Virus record (IMG/VR): IMGVR_UViG_2541047812_000002
Coordinates: 1 to 5,344 of that record
From: a virus
Lineage: Duplodnaviria > Heunggongvirae > Uroviricota > Caudoviricetes
Strand: one strand, 5' to 3'
Length of the DNA stretch: 5,344 bases
The notes beneath the pieces are model-generated. The model was not told the DNA's origin, ran no database searches, and saw nothing but the letters and a program-made list of their open reading frames with translations. Shown piece after piece: positions 1 to 5,344 of this stretch; position 1 is the first letter of the stretch; each line of letters opens with the position of its first letter. The position numbers and the translations under genes were made by a program.

Positions 1-73
1 TTTAACCAGGGCGGGTATCGCTCGGTTTCGGGTATAACCTTAGGAAATTTTTTCCCACCTGTAAAGCACTTTT

Positions 74-105
74 TATATAAATCTATAATTATATATTTAT
101 AGATT
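74..105. repeat. Iteron cluster A: four tandem 8-bp AT-rich units (TATATAAA TCTATAAT TATATATT TATAGATT), related to the clusters flanking the par genes
   Basis: Read directly from sequence. 8-bp periodicity with units starting TATA/TCTA. Contains TTATATAAATCTATA (74-88), the exact reverse complement of TATAGATTTATATAA found in clusters B and D. Outer arms AAATCTATAA / TTATAGATTT form a 10-bp inverted repeat. Confidence 0.6.
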
Positions 106-156
106 TTCGATGTTCCCGATATCTACACACCATCAAAACAGCTCAAAATGACACTT

Positions 157-534
157 TTACTCTCTTCGCTTTTTCAAATAGTCGACAACATACGCCCTGG
201 CTTTTGCCAGCTTCCGGCGATACTGTCTGAGACTAAGAGAAAGGGCGTGGGCTTTATCAATATGCGGTGCATTTATGTCGAGGCCCCGAATCTCCCACGC
301 CCCGTATTCAATTCGGACAACCAGCGCCGCAGTCTCATCAACTACCGTGAGGGCCGTCACCGCTCCCTCGATACTGGTTTCCAGTGAGTCATTTGGTGCG
401 CCGCCCCCTCCGGTAAACTGGCAGCGCGTAACCATCATCATTTCTAACATCGACGCGAAACCGCTACGGGCGTTGCAGCCATTGCGCACCCACAGCGCCC
501 ATAGCTCAAACAAGCTATCCAGATCGCGTCTCAC
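157..534 (-). CDS. Putative phage antitermination protein Q-like (short QuuD-type family)
   Basis: 125-aa ORF, last gene of the coupled minus-strand operon (3-nt gap to the upstream gene). N-terminal LFELWALWVRNG motif and helix-rich C-terminus (LSLSLRQYRRKLAKARAYVVDYL) resemble my recollection of the Phage_antitermQ family. Position at the distal end of a cro-led operon fits. Assigned from memory, not a search. Confidence 0.4.
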   Translation of the reverse strand: MRRDLDSLFELWALWVRNGCNARSGFASMLEMMMVTRCQFTGGGGAPNDSLETSIEGAVTALTVVDETAALVVRIEYGAWEIRGLDINAPHIDKAHALSLSLRQYRRKLAKARAYVVDYLKKRRE

Positions 535-537
535 TGT

Positions 538-870
538 TCAGATCTCCCGTATCGTGACGGGATAAAGCGCCTCTACCTGCTTTTTCTTCATGATGTAGAC
601 GTCTGTTCGCACACCTTTAGTGTCGACACAATCAATCGTCCCATCGTCATAAAACACCATGAAATCAAGTTTATAAACGACACCACCTGGCAGATGAAAA
701 GGCACCTGCATAAGAAACGTCACAACGCGGCCAGCTTTTCTCAGTAGCTTCAGTTCGCAGTAGTAATCAGCCTCTTTTTTGCTATCAAAAGAGATATCAT
801 CGACAACAGTTTTTTTATTGCCGTATTTGCTTTTCCTGGTCGCTGGTTTGCGAAAGCCGGTATATCTCAT
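538..870 (-). CDS. DUF1064-family phage protein (putative nuclease/resolvase-like)
   Basis: 110-aa translation contains KYGNKKTVVDDISFDSKKEADYYCELKLLRKAG ... YKLDFMVFYDDGTIDCVDTKGVRTDVYIMKKK ... IREI, matching the conserved pattern I recall for DUF1064 proteins (KYGNKKT..DG..FDSKKEA..Y.EL.LL.KAG ... DF.Y ... DVKG..T..Y..KKK). Start overlaps the upstream gene stop by 4 nt (ATGA). Confidence 0.65.
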   Translation of the reverse strand: MRYTGFRKPATRKSKYGNKKTVVDDISFDSKKEADYYCELKLLRKAGRVVTFLMQVPFHLPGGVVYKLDFMVFYDDGTIDCVDTKGVRTDVYIMKKKQVEALYPVTIREI

Positions 871-1271
871 TTGGTATCCCCTGGTACTTCACCAAGACTA
901 AGATCAAACCCAATTTCGTCTTTAACTGACTGCGGCAACAGCTCCCACGTCTGCGCACACAAAAATTCATCGGTGCCATAACGCTCAACAAAGCGAGCAC
1001 AATTACTCAGGGGAGGGTGACGAACGGCAATATGCGGAGGCACGCGCCCACCACCAGGCACAACACCGCGATGATGTGGTGCGCACAACCCAAAGCTATG
1101 GAAGTGGCAATTCTCATCAACGCTGCCGTAATCAGGATCGTGATGTAGCTCCGTCCACAGCTCTGGATTCTCAATTTCACGGCCATCAATAATGCAAGCT
1201 ATGCAACCCACGTGAGTGAGCACCGCTTGTATATAAAGTTTCTCTTTCTTCGTTGGTGTACGTCCGTTCAT
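867..1271 (-). CDS. Cys/His-rich hypothetical protein, possible Zn-binding phage nuclease-like protein
   Basis: 134-aa ORF in the coupled operon. Contains CIAC, HHD, CHFHSFGLC and HH clusters suggestive of metal binding. AAGGGG Shine-Dalgarno about 5 nt upstream of the ATG. Family not confidently recognised. Confidence 0.5.
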   Translation of the reverse strand: MNGRTPTKKEKLYIQAVLTHVGCIACIIDGREIENPELWTELHHDPDYGSVDENCHFHSFGLCAPHHRGVVPGGGRVPPHIAVRHPPLSNCARFVERYGTDEFLCAQTWELLPQSVKDEIGFDLSLGEVPGDTK

Positions 1272-1504
1272 CAGCGCCCCTTACCATTGATAAAGAGGTT
1301 GAACTCGTTGATTAACTGGACATACATGCTTCTGGCCGCGTAGTTCTTTGCCAGCTCTTTACGGGATGAGATCCCGCAAAACTCACGCAGAATCACAGAG
1401 GCCTCAGAACTGTTTGAAACGTTCTTCCCTGTTTTACTGGTCAGAAAGCGCCAGAATTGGGGATTCTGGCAATGCATCGCAGCACCGCGAACATAACTAC
1501 TCAT
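1271..1504 (-). CDS. Hypothetical small protein (77 aa)
   Basis: ORF in the coupled operon: its start overlaps the upstream stop (ATGA) and its stop shares one nucleotide with the downstream start (TGATG). No recognisable motif. Confidence 0.4.
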   Translation of the reverse strand: MSSYVRGAAMHCQNPQFWRFLTSKTGKNVSNSSEASVILREFCGISSRKELAKNYAARSMYVQLINEFNLFINGKGR

Positions 1505-2016
1505 TGATGGCCCCCGTCATTTCTGGTGCTTTTCACCGTGCGGCTTCTTAAAAACCTGCCATCACGAACAACAGACACTTCTCGTTTACCCAACCTCATT
1601 TCACGGCGGTAACATTCAGAAAATGCCTCGTCCGGCATCATATAAATGCGACGCTTCGCCTCCGTATCCAGAAGGGAACGGCTTGGGGTTACATATAAAA
1701 ACGACTCATCAATAGGGACAAAACCACGAGCAAGAATTGCTGGCAGAATGCCAGGAAGAACGCAGAAAACAGCTCCACGATGCAGCAACATCAGGTACTC
1801 CATGACCTCCGTTATCCCCGTGACTACTGTTACGGTGTCACGTCTGTTACGGCTGGCAACCAGTCGCTGCACACGTCCAATTTTCTGATCTACAGATAGA
1901 TGTTTGCTATCGTTATCAATATGATCGATAGCAAATCCTTTAATCGTTTGATCAAGGTAGTGCACCACCTTCGATTGAATCTGGTGATTATCACCAAAGA
2001 AGGCCAGAATCATCAT
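1501..2016 (-). CDS. Hypothetical protein (171 aa), second gene of the early operon
   Basis: Long ORF whose ATG overlaps the stop of the cro-like gene (ATGATGA). GGGAGG and GAGGA Shine-Dalgarno candidates upstream. No family recognised from the sequence alone. Confidence 0.55.
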   Translation of the reverse strand: MMILAFFGDNHQIQSKVVHYLDQTIKGFAIDHIDNDSKHLSVDQKIGRVQRLVASRNRRDTVTVVTGITEVMEYLMLLHRGAVFCVLPGILPAILARGFVPIDESFLYVTPSRSLLDTEAKRRIYMMPDEAFSECYRREMRLGKREVSVVRDGRFLRSRTVKSTRNDGGHQ

Positions 2017-2507
2017 TCCTCAAGCCTCCCAAGTGCTGAACGCCGGGCGTTGCTAATCTCCTTATGAATCAGCTCGATATCGCTGGAATCTTTATTCTTA
2101 AGCTCCAGCACGGTAATCGCATCACGAACCTCTGAAACGGTTACGTGTGAGTGTTTCCAGCGAGCAATGAATCGCGGACCGCGTAGATTGCAACGCTCCG
2201 CAGGCATCCCCAACTCAGAGAAAACCGCTTTCAGCCTTGATAAGCAGTTAACAGGGAGATTCCCTTTGATCTTGTTCTGCCGAACCGATGTGCCATCGCT
2301 ACGCTGGCGCTGACGTTCGGCAAAATCTGCCGCCCATTGCTGGACGTTAATCCGGCCTTCCGAATACGCCACCAGCAGCGTCAGGTTATCCGCACGAGGG
2401 AATCTCTCGAAGCGATACCAGGCACCAATCAGTGATGACGTAAAGCCAAACTTTCTGGCAACACCAATTTGGCCTCCATTTTCGTCAACCCACTCCTGAA
2501 AGGTCAT
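2013..2507 (-). CDS. Cro/CII-like HTH DNA-binding protein with about 100-aa C-terminal extension
   Basis: 164-aa ORF transcribed divergently from the repressor gene. N-terminus (QIGVARKFGFTSSLIGAWYRF) has the pattern of Cro/YdaS-type HTH proteins. GGAG Shine-Dalgarno 8 nt upstream of the ATG. Promoter and operators lie immediately upstream. Confidence 0.55.
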   Translation of the reverse strand: MTFQEWVDENGGQIGVARKFGFTSSLIGAWYRFERFPRADNLTLLVAYSEGRINVQQWAADFAERQRQRSDGTSVRQNKIKGNLPVNCLSRLKAVFSELGMPAERCNLRGPRFIARWKHSHVTVSEVRDAITVLELKNKDSSDIELIHKEISNARRSALGRLEE

Positions 2508-2526
2508 TTAACGAACTCCAGTTAAA

Positions 2527-2541
2527 ACCACGATATGTGGT
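2527..2541. promoter_or_regulatory. Operator-like palindrome O1 (ACCAC-GATAT-GTGGT)
   Basis: Perfect 5-bp inverted arms ACCAC/GTGGT with a 5-bp spacer. Lies just downstream of the -10 of the putative cro-like promoter, on the minus strand. Confidence 0.5.
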
Positions 2542-2570
2542 ATTAAAACCACATATCGTGAGTTTTTCAA
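2542..2570 (-). promoter_or_regulatory. Putative sigma70 promoter of the cro-like/early operon
   Basis: On the minus strand: -35 TTGAAA (2565-2570), 17-bp spacer, -10 TTTAAT (2542-2547). A T10 tract (A10 on the plus strand, 2576-2585) lies just upstream and could act as a UP element. Operator O2 fills the spacer. Confidence 0.45.
2548..2562. promoter_or_regulatory. Operator-like palindrome O2 (ACCAC-ATATC-GTGAG)
   Basis: Same ACCAC-N5-GTG(G) architecture as O1, with one imperfect arm. Its core is the reverse complement of the O1 core. Occupies 15 of the 17 spacer positions between the -35 and -10 of the putative cro-like promoter. Confidence 0.5.
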
Positions 2571-2628
2571 TGGGCAAAAAAAAAATAACCTTCTATTTGT
2601 GGTCCACCTCTCGTCTTACCATGTGAAA

Positions 2629-2643
2629 ACCACTAAATGTGGT
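2629..2643. promoter_or_regulatory. Operator-like palindrome O3 (ACCAC-TAAAT-GTGGT)
   Basis: Third copy of ACCAC-N5-GTGGT. Sits 5 bp upstream of a TATAAA -10-like hexamer (2648-2653, with TG at 2646-2647) about 28 bp ahead of the repressor ATG. Confidence 0.45.
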
Positions 2644-2680
2644 AATGTATAAATAACCCACCATTCACGATTGATGAGAC

Positions 2681-3337
2681 ATGAAAAGCAACGACGAGAA
2701 CATCAAGAAAGAAATAGGTCTGCGCATTCAGACTCTACGGAAACAATCCGGCATGACTGCCGGAGATCTCCAGCAAGTCACTGGAATAGGCTTAAGCACC
2801 TTGCAGAACTATGAGGCCGGATTAAGACAACCATCTATACCTGCCATCAAGAAAATCGCGCACGCCCTGAAAGCATCAGCGCCTTATATCGCGTGCTTAA
2901 CAGATAACCCGTTCCCACCCCAGAATACTAACGCTCCTGTTATTCCTGGGCTTGTAGCTATAAAAAATGACATAGCATCGCACGCCGGAGAAAAGCCAGT
3001 GCTGGCGATAGAACAGGAGATTCTACGAAGCAAGAACATCAACCCATCGTCTCTGTCAGTTCTCCAGAGCAACGATGAGTTAATGTCACCAACAATATCC
3101 CCTGGCTCCCAAGTCCTGATTGATACAGACGATACAGAGATTCATGAGGGGATCTATGCCCTTGAAGACAGAAATGGCCTGGTTGTTTTGAGGCACTGTA
3201 GAGTCATACCGGGTGACAATGCTGTTATGCTGTCAACCGAAAGGGATGCTGAAATGAACACTAAGCATCTGAATAACGAGGAATTTAAGCGTTATAAAGT
3301 TCTGGGCCGCGTAGTTAGTGTTGTCAACTGGTTATGA
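2681..3337 (+). CDS. CI-like transcriptional repressor: N-terminal XRE-type HTH plus C-terminal S24 (LexA/CI)-like domain, apparently catalytically degenerate
   Basis: 218-aa ORF. Residues about 11-70 have the classic XRE HTH pattern (GMTAGDLQQVTGIGLSTLQNYEAGLRQPSIPAIKKIAHAL). The C-terminal 90 aa align to the S24 fold (LMSPTISPGSQVLIDTD ... YKVLGRVVSV), but the GDSM serine position reads DELM and the conserved lysine position is R/H. Confidence 0.7.
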   Translation: MKSNDENIKKEIGLRIQTLRKQSGMTAGDLQQVTGIGLSTLQNYEAGLRQPSIPAIKKIAHALKASAPYIACLTDNPFPPQNTNAPVIPGLVAIKNDIASHAGEKPVLAIEQEILRSKNINPSSLSVLQSNDELMSPTISPGSQVLIDTDDTEIHEGIYALEDRNGLVVLRHCRVIPGDNAVMLSTERDAEMNTKHLNNEEFKRYKVLGRVVSVVNWL

Positions 3338-3379
3338 TACACAGCACGGCGAAAGCCGTGCATTTCTACGCTCAAAAAA

Positions 3380-3394
3380 ACCACATTTTGTGGT
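3380..3394. promoter_or_regulatory. Operator-like palindrome O4 (ACCAC-ATTTT-GTGGT)
   Basis: Fourth copy of the motif, within the longer palindrome AAAACCACATTTTGTGGTTTT, between the repressor stop and the next gene. A TTGACA hexamer follows at 3395-3400, and AGAGG (3419-3423) precedes the ATG at 3430. Confidence 0.45.
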
Positions 3395-3429
3395 TTTGAC
3401 AACATGTGAAAGTATAAAAGAGGCTACGC

Positions 3430-3804
3430 ATGGAATTACATACAGCCAATAAAAACGAAACTCTGATCACTGCTGGAATCGAAATCCAAGCGTTGAACAT
3501 AGCGATTGAGTGTATGTTATGCCAAATCATTGATAATGAGAAAGATATCGACTGGATATCATCTACCCTTCATCTTGCTTACGAGCAAAAAGCCTGCCTC
3601 AAAACAGCCTTACAATACGATGTGCCTTCTGTATCAAAGCTGTGCCAGTCATTGATGGCATATAACAGAGCTATCATTTCTGTATGCCTCATGATTCTCG
3701 ATGAGAATACCCCTCTTAGCGACCGCTCAGAAGCAGCTCTAACCCTCTCACGTAAACAGCGACAGCTAGCAAATCAACTGATATCAACGATAGCTGACCT
3801 CTGA
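3430..3804 (+). CDS. Hypothetical protein (124 aa) downstream of the repressor gene
   Basis: ORF with a good Shine-Dalgarno (AAGAGG, 6-nt spacing) and a stem-loop terminator immediately after its stop. Predicted mostly helical. No family recognised. Confidence 0.5.
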   Translation: MELHTANKNETLITAGIEIQALNIAIECMLCQIIDNEKDIDWISSTLHLAYEQKACLKTALQYDVPSVSKLCQSLMAYNRAIISVCLMILDENTPLSDRSEAALTLSRKQRQLANQLISTIADL

Positions 3805-3808
3805 CTGC

Positions 3809-3828
3809 AAGCGGGCTAACGCCCGCTT
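3809..3828 (+). terminator. Putative intrinsic terminator (stem AAGCGGGC / GCCCGCTT, loop TAAC)
   Basis: Perfect 8-bp GC-rich stem with a 4-nt loop starting 5 nt after the stop at 3804. Followed by AT-rich sequence, though not a clean T-run. Confidence 0.45.
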
Positions 3829-3859
3829 ATATGATTATAGATTTATATAATTATATAAA
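3828..3859. repeat. Iteron cluster B: four tandem 8-bp units (TATATGAT TATAGATT TATATAAT TATATAAA)
   Basis: Read directly from sequence. The 23-mer TATAGATTTATATAATTATATAA (3836-3858) recurs with one mismatch in cluster C. Confidence 0.6.
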
Positions 3860-3881
3860 ACGCTTTTCATCCGCCAAAAAG

Positions 3882-3910
3882 TTGGTTATGCTTACCTCGT
3901 TCTATAAATA
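3882..3910 (+). promoter_or_regulatory. Putative par operon promoter overlapping iteron cluster C
   Basis: -35-like TTGGTT (3882-3887) and a -10-like TATAAA/TAAATA within 3903-3910 at 15-17 bp spacing, between iteron clusters B and C, about 45 bp upstream of the parA-like start. Weak consensus match; inference only. Confidence 0.3.
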
Positions 3911-3932
3911 TAGATTTATAGAATTATATAAC
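3901..3932. repeat. Iteron cluster C: tandem 8-bp units (TCTATAAA TATAGATT TATAGAAT TATATAAC)
   Basis: Read directly from sequence. 3909-3931 (TATAGATTTATAGAATTATATAA) differs from the cluster B 23-mer at one position. Ends 23 bp before the parA-like start. Confidence 0.6.
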
Positions 3933-3954
3933 CAAACACATGGAGTCTCGACAA

Positions 3955-4608
3955 ATGACTATCTCTGTAGGTATTTTCAACGGAAAAGGCGGCGTAACCA
4001 AATCAACAATTGCCCGTGCTTTAGCAGTTGCTTATGCAAAGGCTGGCTGGAATGTATGCCTGATCGATATGGATGTGCTTAACGGAACGGTAACGCGTTG
4101 GGTACAACGCAGAATGGCCAACAATATCGAACCAGCAATCGCGGCGCAGCCGTGCGGCACACCATCACAAGTCCAGAAAATCATCGAATCAGAAGTATAC
4201 GACCTGGTTATCGTCGATGGCGGTGCCTACGCATCTGAATCAGTACCGAAGCTCTCTGAATTTCTGGATATGGTTATTTTGCCAACCAGATTCTCTACCG
4301 ATGACCTGGAAACCACCGTTAACACAGCTCACGGCATCGTTAAAAAGGGTGTACCAATCAAGAAAATTTGCATGGTGTTTTCCGGCGCGGCTGAAAACGA
4401 AGCTGACTATATTGAAGCCCAAGAGTACCTGGCTAATACGCCATACTTTGTTGTCGATAAGTACATTCCCCACAAGCCAGCTCTGAGCAAAGCTCAGGAT
4501 AAGGGCTTAAGCCTTATTGAGTGCTCATACGTTGCGCCACGCAAAAAGGCAGACGATGTTATCCAGGGGATTATCAATCAGCTTGAGGCTCTGACTACTG
4601 CCGCGTAA
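3955..4608 (+). CDS. parA: ParA/ParF-family partition ATPase (small, type Ib; deviant Walker A)
   Basis: N-terminus MTISVGIFNGKGGVTKSTIARALAVAYAKAGWNVCLIDMD carries the deviant Walker A motif KGGxxK[ST] typical of ParA/MinD ATPases. About 217 aa, the size of ParF-type proteins. I prefer the ATG at 3955 (GGAG 9 nt upstream) over the track's ATG at 3940, which has no Shine-Dalgarno. Confidence 0.85.
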   Translation: MTISVGIFNGKGGVTKSTIARALAVAYAKAGWNVCLIDMDVLNGTVTRWVQRRMANNIEPAIAAQPCGTPSQVQKIIESEVYDLVIVDGGAYASESVPKLSEFLDMVILPTRFSTDDLETTVNTAHGIVKKGVPIKKICMVFSGAAENEADYIEAQEYLANTPYFVVDKYIPHKPALSKAQDKGLSLIECSYVAPRKKADDVIQGIINQLEALTTAA

Positions 4609-4640
4609 TATATAATTATAGTTTTATAGATTTATATAAA
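4609..4640. repeat. Iteron cluster D: four tandem 8-bp units (TATATAAT TATAGTTT TATAGATT TATATAAA) filling the parA-parG spacer
   Basis: Read directly from sequence. Begins immediately after the parA-like stop (4606-4608) and ends 11 bp before the parG-like ATG. Shares TATAGATTTATATAA with cluster B. Confidence 0.6.
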
Positions 4641-4651
4641 AGGGGATACAC

Positions 4652-4900
4652 ATGGCCGCACCATCAAAACCACCGAAAAAGAACAGCAAAGGCGTACCGC
4701 CATCAATCGAACAACCGCAGGTTTTCGACCCGACTGAAACGCCGACCAGAACCAAATCAGGTGGGGCACAAATGGCGTTTAACGTCGACCCTGAATTTAA
4801 ACGCGAGTACAAAACGTTCGCCAGCTCAATGGATATGTCATTGAAAGAAGTGCTGACAAAATCTTTTGAGTTACTCAAGGCTCAATACAACCAGAAGTAA
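4652..4900 (+). CDS. ParG-like ribbon-helix-helix centromere-binding protein (82 aa)
   Basis: Immediately downstream of the ParA-like gene, with an AAGGGG Shine-Dalgarno. C-terminal 40 aa (MAFNVDPEFKREYKTFASSMDMSLKEVLTKSFELLKAQY) fits a beta-strand/helix/helix RHH pattern similar to TP228 ParG as I recall it. N-terminal 40 aa is a Pro/Lys-rich, probably disordered tail. Confidence 0.6.
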   Translation: MAAPSKPPKKNSKGVPPSIEQPQVFDPTETPTRTKSGGAQMAFNVDPEFKREYKTFASSMDMSLKEVLTKSFELLKAQYNQK

Positions 4901-4962
4901 GAGAAGGTGACGGCCTCCAGCGCCAACTGTTGGCCGTCGCGACACAACAAGGGGAATTTGTT

Positions 4963-5112
4963 ATGTCCGAGCAACAATATACACGGTTACTGAAAACTCG
5001 TCTAACCGACCTCAAACGGCTGCAAGCTGGTTGCTTATTTGCCCTGCTATCTACCAGGCCAGAATGGGTACGTGAAGCAGTTCTGAAAGGTTTAATGCGC
5101 TCCAGCGTTTAA
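4963..5112 (+). CDS. Hypothetical small protein (49 aa from the ATG at 4963; the track ORF starts at 4930)
   Basis: AAGGGGA Shine-Dalgarno 7 nt upstream of the ATG at 4963. Stop codon TAA (5110-5112) lies 9 bp before the IS terminal repeat. No motif recognised. Confidence 0.3.
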   Translation: MSEQQYTRLLKTRLTDLKRLQAGCLFALLSTRPEWVREAVLKGLMRSSV

Positions 5113-5120
5113 ATTCAACC

Positions 5121-5344
5121 GGCTTTGTTGAATAAATCGAACTTTTGCTGAGTTGAAGGATCAGATCACGCATCCTCCCGACAACACAGACCATTCCGTG
5201 GCAAAGCAAAAGTTCAGAATCACCAACTGGTCCACCTACAACAAAGCTCTCATCAACCGTGGCTCCCTCACTTTCTGGCTGGATGATGAAGCGATTCAGG
5301 CCTGGTATGAGTCGGCAACGCCTTCATCACGAGGAAGGCCCCAG
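5121..5344 (+). mobile_element. IS903-group insertion sequence (IS5 family), left end; partial, continues past the window
   Basis: 5121-5138 GGCTTTGTTGAATAAATC matches the 18-bp terminal inverted repeat of IS903 as I recall it. The following 200 bp match the known IS903 left end with a few substitutions. Confidence 0.85.
5198..5344 (+). CDS. tnp: IS903-family (IS5 family) transposase, N-terminal 49 codons (partial; GTG start; runs off the window)
   Basis: Translation from GTG 5198: VAKQKFRITNWSTYNKALINRGSLTFWLDDEAIQAWYESATPSSRGRPQ, near-identical to the IS903 transposase N-terminus as I remember it (MAKQKFKITNWSTYNKALINRGSLTFWLDDEAIQAWYESATPSSRGRPQ). Absent from the ORF track because it lacks an ATG and is truncated by the window edge. 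Confidence 0.8.
   Translation, partial: MAKQKFRITNWSTYNKALINRGSLTFWLDDEAIQAWYESATPSSRGRPQ

Follow-up and report, generated by a model that had tools for sequence, protein, structure and literature searches.

The locus studied here lies in a window of 5,344 nt, the whole stretch of phage DNA that was analyzed, and centers on a 124-aa open reading frame (ORF) that directly follows the gene of a CI-like prophage repressor on the same strand (Table 1). The 92 nt between the repressor stop and the ORF start are nearly filled by a hairpin, the operator copy O4 and a Shine-Dalgarno (SD) sequence; a second hairpin follows the ORF, and the genes for ParA and an 82-aa protein come next. On the other side of the repressor gene, a leftward early operon that starts at position 2507 encodes a 164-aa protein in the Cro position, proteins of 171 and 77 aa, a Ref nuclease and a DUF1064 protein, and its promoter (TTGAAA-17 nt-TTTAAT, PWM score 11) is covered by O1 and O2. 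A sequence-only reading of the window had described the ORF as a gene directly after the repressor, with a strong SD, a dedicated terminator and its own operator copy about 35 bp upstream, and each of these elements is confirmed, its coordinates being right to within one base.

Table 1. Coordinates of the features discussed in the text; positions refer to the window unless another record is named.
Feature	Position	Strand	Remarks
First gene of leftward operon, 164 aa	2013-2507	-	Cro position; phrog_7452
Operators O1, O2, O3	2524-2544, 2545-2565, 2626-2646		AAAACCAC-N5-GTGGTTTT, same motif as O4
Isolated half-site	2591-2606		CTATTTGTGGT, between O2 and O3
CI-like prophage repressor, 218 aa	2681-3337	+	N-terminal HTH_3 and diverged C-terminal domain
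Terminator hairpin of repressor transcript	3344-3361	+	GCACGGC-GAAA-GCCGTGC; -15 kcal/mol, z = -4.3
Operator O4	3377-3397		AAAACCAC-ATTTT-GTGGTTTT; perfect 8+5+8 palindrome, ends 32 nt before ATG
Orphan TTGACA hexamer	3396-3401	+	17-18 nt spacing lands on AGAGGC/GAGGCT; no -10 at 16-18 nt
Weak extended -10-like element	3405-3413	+	TGT-GAAAGT; 8 nt downstream of O4
Shine-Dalgarno	3418-3423	+	AAGAGG, 6 nt before ATG
124-aa ORF	3430-3804	+	ATG start; from ORF list
Antisense promoter-like element	3496-3525	-	TTGGCA (3525-3520), 18 nt, TATGTT (3501-3496); inside ORF
Terminator hairpin of ORF	3809-3828	+	8 bp, -14.9 kcal/mol, z = -3.5; abuts first partition-repeat array
Repeat arrays	74-103, 3827-3939, 4608-4640; L014 21683-21721, 22826-22856, 27066-27097, 37181-37195		TTATAGAT/TTATATAA, AT-rich, 8-bp period
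Small ORF	4963-5112		IS903 end inserted just past it
IS903 end	5120-5344		starts at ~5120
Solitary operators (repA promoter region / ahead of ant operon)	L014 (NZ_CP080230) 40803-40821 and 33925-33943; L021 27460-27478		
ryfA, isrK and C4 antisense RNA	L014 33333-33629, 34001-34074, 34099-34187		Rfam
Match to repressor C-terminal domain	L022 3001-3285		residues 118-218, 29% identity

The element that carries the locus

Positions 1 to 5120 of the window are 100% identical to the E. coli plasmid pP136-7 (NZ_CP080230, 48 kb, non-mobilizable), and the window shows ~98.8% identity to many Escherichia plasmids of 47-50 kb and to three Yersinia phage isolates (vB_YpM_39, 41 and 44), on which a literature search returned nothing. 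Alongside the head, tail and lysis genes of a myovirus, the full element has a RepA initiator, toxin-antitoxin genes and a ParA partition operon, which makes it a phage-plasmid. CP032086, one of the records matching the window, has been named as a member of the "p-p47 family" (bioRxiv 10.64898/2026.08.19.745698), and the window is part of a ~48 kb phage-plasmid of this family. Another member of the p-p47 family is the 48.5 kb plasmid found in E. coli ATCC 25922, a quality-control strain that figures among the 61 matching records in PLSDB. The element pSLy3, met in the literature, is a different one. Members of the family have been reported not to be induced by mitomycin C or ciprofloxacin, and some of them carry bla-TEM and give rise to heteroresistance through an increase in copy number (bioRxiv 10.64898/2026.08.19.745698).

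The last part of the window, from about position 5120, is an IS903 end without counterpart in the reference plasmids; it shares 92-95% identity with the copies of IS903 found in P7 and HK022. At this point the reference plasmids run into a ryfA-like element and then into a C4-RNA/antirepressor locus, and hence the copy of the element sampled by the window has an insertion upstream of the antirepressor region. An Rfam search of the window gave no match. AT-rich arrays of repeats with a period of 8 bp (TTATAGAT/TTATATAA) flank the operon for ParA and the 82-aa protein on both sides and recur in several further intergenic regions of the element, an arrangement reminiscent of the dispersed centromere sites of N15; it may be to these repeats that the 82-aa partition protein binds.

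Conservation of the 124-aa gene

The ORF is a real gene and belongs to the conserved core of a phage-plasmid family that is common in E. coli. It lies directly 3' of the repressor gene in nine diverged loci (E. coli, Salmonella, Yokenella, Citrobacter and metagenomes), and all relatives found, at identities between 94% and 26%, have it in that position. All 61 PLSDB matches and the three Yersinia phage isolates contain the gene. Gene order (repressor, ORF, ParA, 82-aa protein) is identical in every locus that reaches that far, and the SD region (GAGAGGC) is invariant in all relatives (alignment A3). The variable presence typical of morons and lysogenic-conversion cargo is thus not seen here, the ORF being fixed in all relatives found. 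Pairwise dN/dS values of 0.16-0.30 reveal purifying selection on the coding sequence.

Together with the C-terminal domain of the repressor, the ORF shows the fastest protein evolution of the neighborhood, with identities across relatives of 47-60% for the ORF product, 61-66% for the repressor, 92-96% for ParA and 89-96% for ParA/ParG. Synonymous divergence, on the other hand, equals that of the neighbors (dS ~2 for both the ORF and parA), so that the fast divergence of the ORF points to relaxed constraint and not to a recombination patch. A mosaic boundary between the ORF and parA was accordingly rejected, as dS is ~2 on both sides and the partition genes are simply more constrained. Frameshifted ORF copies do occur in sequenced elements. 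The joint disruption of repressor and ORF in Escherichia sp. E2593 (L017) was weighed as a genetic hint and dropped, because its lesions, single-base indels scattered over several genes, look like assembly errors.

Family and predicted fold of the ORF product

The only family matched by the ORF product is phrog_7632, which is annotated as "unknown function" and is matched over its full length (E = 4.5e-79; residues 1-124 of the protein align to positions 1-124 of the profile). When 1.84 billion cluster representatives were searched exhaustively with a profile, only seven proteins came up, all from this same family, and a word-indexed search of 5.8 billion gave 11 clusters. No family was found in Pfam, none among the PADLOC defence profiles at E <= 1, and only a chance match in NCBIfam (14.7 bits against a cut-off of 325); a search of PDB sequences gave no match, and the literature returned nothing for the protein accessions or for phrog_7632.

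An AlphaFold2 (AF2) model with four helices (pLDDT 90.5) presents the ORF product as a soluble, acidic four-helix bundle, for which no characterized homolog was found. The protein and its relatives have a pI of 4.5-4.9 (4.9 for the window copy) and a net charge of -5 to -11. No membrane segment was detected, the maximum Kyte-Doolittle mean over 19 residues (1.51) falling in an amphipathic helix with charged residues, and the protein lacks the membrane segment, signal peptide or lipobox that would be looked for in superinfection-exclusion proteins of the SieA/SieB, Sim, Imm and Cor types. Conservation concentrates in helix 1 (G-I-E-I-x-A-x-N-I-x-I-E-C), a D-I-D-W loop and helix 4 (E-A...K-Q-R...I-A-D), which in the model make up a strongly conserved acidic face. 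Structural matches were to generic bundles only, and the four-helix fold is uninformative as to the target. An internal duplication of a helix hairpin, raised by the DNA repeat D4, was rejected, as 95 of 500 shuffles reach the alignment score of the two halves.

The repressor and its predicted regulon

The repressor matches Pfam HTH_3 (4.5e-11) and phrog_4, "transcriptional repressor" (1.8e-27), and its C-terminal domain is weakly S24-like, with a Peptidase_S24 match (5.7e-4) below the cut-off. Its HTH is 90-96% conserved across the family and its C-terminal domain 50-60%. Where S24 repressors have G-D-S-M-x-P, the C-terminal domain conserves N-D-E-L-M-S/A-P and thus has no G-D/N-S-M motif; comparison with E. 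coli LexA was not significant by hhalign, and the MAFFT alignment was unreliable. The missing motif, the sub-threshold S24 match and the reported lack of induction by mitomycin C or ciprofloxacin concur in indicating that the repressor is probably not self-cleaving. The non-induction of the family would indeed fit a non-cleavable repressor that needs protein antagonists. Locus searches based on the repressor returned the same family and one distant Halodesulfovibrio plasmid match. The latter, in the 32.7 kb plasmid p1 of Halodesulfovibrio aestuarii (L022), is the sole match to the C-terminal domain from outside the Enterobacteriaceae.

The 164-aa protein encoded opposite the repressor is far larger than a typical Cro; it has a weak N-terminal match to phrog_35, a phage repressor family (E = 0.002), and its role as lytic repressor is assumed. 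The isolated half-site CTATTTGTGGT between O2 and O3 is kept in all relatives and may be a binding site of this protein or a weak extra site for the repressor.

The operator motif CCAC-N5-GTGG, with at most one mismatch, occurs five times in the window against 1.5 expected. Of all copies in the window O4 is the best, and it is likewise the best in seven of the eight relatives scanned, where it matches 12 of 12 specified bases, and the site of the most distant relative (L011) matches 10 of 12. Its central five bases vary among relatives, and its distance to the ATG stays within 28-37 nt in all relatives scanned, even though the bases in between turn over. A scan of the complete plasmid yields six operators, namely O1-O3 at the divergent switch, O4, one at the ant operon and one at repA, which makes O4 one of three solitary operators. 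The ant operator has a terminator before it and TGTTAAAAT after it, stands ahead of the antirepressor operon and is kept in the ATCC 25922, Yokenella and Citrobacter elements. The repA operator lies in the repA promoter region, about 9 kb from O4, and is kept in a Salmonella relative with a repressor of only 66% identity. Since O4 shares its solitary state with the operators ahead of repA and of the C4-RNA/antirepressor operon, it seems reasonable to postulate a dispersed repressor regulon. The repressor probably also sets plasmid copy number, and this may explain the copy-number mutant reported for p-p49, whose SNP lies in "a potential transcriptional regulator".

In pP136-7 (L014), Rfam matches at gathering score place ryfA, isrK and C4 antisense RNA between the partition operon and an ORF6N/pRha antirepressor gene, with C4 and isrK in the ant leader and the ryfA element nearby, all in the region beyond the IS903 junction of the window. 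This region is an immI module of the P1/P7 type in a non-P1 phage-plasmid, and the element thus combines an antirepressor locus of the P1/N15 type with a CI-type switch.

Transcription signals around the ORF

The sequence-only reading had supposed that the ORF might be co-transcribed with the repressor gene. It had missed the hairpin that lies directly after the repressor stop and upstream of O4, a conserved intrinsic terminator with a GC stem of 7 bp whose presence between the two genes argues against simple co-transcription. Among relatives its loop turns over, and L012 shows one compensatory change from A-U to G-C; its tail is U6-7 in all diverged relatives and AUUUCU in the E. coli clade of the window, where this decay of the U-tract may allow the terminator to leak. 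The hairpin behind the ORF is kept in L002, L005, L009 and L013, so that terminators flank the gene on both sides. A consensus scan calls the repressor-end terminator in L009 and L002 and the ORF terminator in L002, and it makes no call for the latter in the window because the tail is U-poor (UUAUAU).

With the 92-nt gap almost filled by hairpin, O4 and SD, any promoter of the ORF must overlap O4. As already noted by the sequence-only reading for the window, no convincing -35/-10 pair is found, and this holds for all relatives: no convincing sigma-70 promoter was identified for the ORF in the window or in any of them. That reading was right in that the TTGACA hexamer has no -10 at 16-18 nt, and one base off in placing it at 3395-3400; in relatives the hexamer is replaced by TTGACG, TTAACG, TTCCAG or TTTTAG. 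Attempts to fit a promoter upstream of O4, one with O4 as part of its spacer or one built on TTGACA were all discarded, none being consistent across relatives. The only promoter-like feature conserved in position is the TGT-GAAAGT element, which recurs in most relatives as a hexamer N-A-A/C-A-G-T (TGn-NA(A/C)AGT) about 22 nt before the ATG and scores 3-6 on the PWM, as against 11 for the leftward early promoter. Its status as a promoter is doubtful, since transcription from it would begin at ~3420, within the SD.

Among promoter-like elements near the ORF, the one with the best score lies inside the gene on the opposite strand; it recurs in relatives, changed at one position at most. Its -10 overlies the codons AAC ATA (ATA being a rare Ile codon), which are identical in six of six lineages despite a dS of ~2, and four of the six fully codon-invariant positions of the ORF fall in codons 23-35. 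An RNA from this element would cover the first 60 nt of the ORF, the SD and O4, and in the window the O4 hairpin is followed on the antisense strand by U7. The conservation of the element may reflect coding constraint in the most conserved peptide segment, or chance.

Comparison with known immunity regions

The ORF is an ordinary-looking core gene, an orphan whose regulatory context is N15-like and not rex-like. The genes rexA/rexB of lambda and nun of HK022 share with the ORF a place immediately behind a prophage repressor gene and in the same orientation. In the lysogen they are transcribed together with cI, and neither a terminator nor an operator intervenes; they are lineage-variable cargo, and RexB is a membrane protein. 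The ORF, in contrast, is insulated by terminators, preceded by an operator and part of the core, and its product is soluble.

In N15 and phiKO2, the repressor CB binds three OR sites and, in addition, OL sites that separate cB from repA, the gene that follows it; CB reduces copy number and has no Ser/Lys self-cleavage residues (PMC4997575). The likeness to the present element is manifold, both systems being plasmid prophages with a CI-like repressor that lacks self-cleavage residues and with three operators in the divergent region (cB-cro in N15, O1-O3 here). In both, extra operators of the same consensus stand just downstream of the repressor gene, apparently to control the next gene: O4 shares the consensus of O1-O3 and, like OL, sits between the repressor gene and the gene that follows. 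Control of repA by the repressor, predicted here from operator position, would be a further shared trait. Several differences must be noted. The gene behind OL is repA, whereas here it is an orphan gene for a four-helix bundle and the solitary operator of repA lies 9 kb away; OL comprises two operators and O4 is single; a terminator precedes the operator here, and no promoter was found for the gene behind O4; and the contact between repressor and operator is in our case a prediction from sequence.

The nearest functional analogy to the ORF seems to be P1 coi, which encodes the C1 inactivator. In P1 immC, as here, a small gene adjoins the repressor gene under the operators of the repressor (coi/c1, NC_005856), a control that is predicted for the ORF, and the element shares with P1 a C4 antisense RNA/antirepressor locus. 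The regulatory logic would be equal if the ORF product were to antagonize the repressor. Nonetheless, coi precedes c1 and shares a transcript with it, whereas the ORF lies downstream of its repressor gene, and Coi has 69 aa compared with 124. Homology between the two proteins was rejected (hhalign probability of 0.2% over two aligned columns, alignment A7).

Function of the ORF and alternative explanations

The best explanation we can offer is that the ORF constitutes a core single-gene transcription unit of the p-p47-family immunity module, which intrinsic terminators would insulate from the repressor gene and from the partition operon. We infer that repressor bound at O4 keeps the ORF low in the plasmid-prophage state, that the gene is made when the repressor is absent, either just after infection or after derepression, and that its product binds another protein. 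The favored target would be the lysis-lysogeny or establishment switch, on which the product could act as a Coi-like inactivator of the repressor or as a commitment factor. A separate unit controlled through O4 strikes us as reasonably probable, because the terminator-operator-gene-terminator layout is conserved and solitary operators appear to be used locally in this element. As to the product, a fixed, lineage-specific, soluble acidic bundle encoded in an immunity module is more likely to be a regulator of switch or establishment than defence cargo; that it acts on the switch by protein binding is nevertheless a doubtful proposition when taken by itself. Viewed as a whole, as a repressor-repressed separate unit whose product acts on the switch or on establishment by protein binding, the explanation is tentative and falls somewhat short of an even chance. 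Speaking against it, no convincing promoter overlaps O4, and the only -10-like element conserved in position would start its mRNA inside the SD; the degraded U-tract in the clade of the window may permit read-through from the repressor promoter; and the modelled four-helix fold is generic and would be silent on the target. The presence of an operator is moreover no proof of silence, since repA has a solitary operator and yet must be expressed in the lysogen.

The role put forward by the sequence-only reading, that of a rex-like host-protective gene acting in superinfection exclusion or abortive infection, would require transcription from the repressor promoter to read through into the ORF in the lysogen, to an extent tuned by O4. 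The position of the ORF directly downstream of the repressor gene on the same strand, the lack of a recognizable promoter of its own, the weak U-tract (AUUUCU) of the intervening terminator in the E. coli clade and the fast evolution of the gene are all compatible with such a role, but it finds no support in the defence, Pfam and NCBIfam profiles, in a protein devoid of membrane segment or signal, or in a core gene held at a fixed position instead of variable cargo. The dN/dS values (0.2-0.3) carry no sign of an arms race, and in relatives a strong terminator with U6-7 separates the two genes. In addition, the strongest operator sits between that terminator and the gene, which leads us to predict that the gene is expressed at a low level in the lysogen, contrary to what protection of the lysogen would require. 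We therefore deem this role unlikely. The same prediction of expression only in non-immune cells would suit an early anti-defence protein, such as an acidic, DNA-mimic-like anti-restriction factor made on host entry and then shut off via O4, and so would a small, acidic, soluble and helical product of an orphan family with fast protein evolution. Known DNA mimics, however, are more strongly charged than the ORF product, whose charge is moderate, and its model shows no match to structures of the Ocr, ArdA or Acr type beyond a generic bundle. Genes of this kind are also usually accessory and swapped between relatives, whereas the ORF is fixed in all members, and an anti-defence function appears improbable.

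Two further alternatives place the emphasis outside the ORF product or on the plasmid state. O4 could serve mainly as an auxiliary operator that loops to O1-O3, some 750-850 bp away, and tightens the main switch, leaving regulation and function of the ORF unrelated to it; that O4 is the highest-quality palindrome and that no promoter can be placed on it would both be in keeping with this. Lambda CI and 186 CI are well known to cooperate over long distances. For CB it has been raised as an open question (PMC4997575). The other solitary operators, though, sit directly at the promoter regions of repA and of the ant operon, suggesting that such sites are used as local operators in the element, and O4 keeps its distance to the ORF start (28-37 nt) despite the turnover in between, all of which gives looping as the main function a low probability in our view. 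A plasmid-maintenance accessory, working with the partition operon of ParA and the 82-aa protein or with RepA in copy-number control, would account for the constant position of the ORF immediately upstream of the partition operon, with its terminator abutting the partition repeats, and for the inclusion of repA in the repressor regulon. Type Ib partition, however, requires nothing but an ATPase, a small DNA-binding protein and repeats, the divergence of the ORF (47-60% identity) tracks that of the immunity genes and not that of ParA/ParG (89-96%), and frameshifted copies are found in sequenced elements, so that we hold a maintenance role to be very unlikely.

Within the preferred reading of a repressor-controlled unit acting on the switch, a more specific version would have the ORF encode a small anti-repressor or commitment factor of a new kind, in a family that is not SOS-inducible. 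Such a factor would be doubly held off, by repressor at O4 and by antisense RNA from TTGGCA-18-TATGTT, and, once repressor activity dips, would commit the element to lytic development or to runaway replication. We advance this version as a long shot.

Phage-plasmids of the p-p47 family are common in E. coli and can be isolated as infectious phages, and their lysis-lysogeny control, which has been unstudied so far, is apparently not driven by the SOS response. Their predicted repressor regulon is now mapped, with three operators at the switch and solitary ones before the ORF, repA and the antirepressor operon. Within it, the ORF is the one core, repressor-linked gene without a functional assignment, and it hence provides a concrete target for understanding how p-p47 elements choose between plasmid maintenance and virion production.
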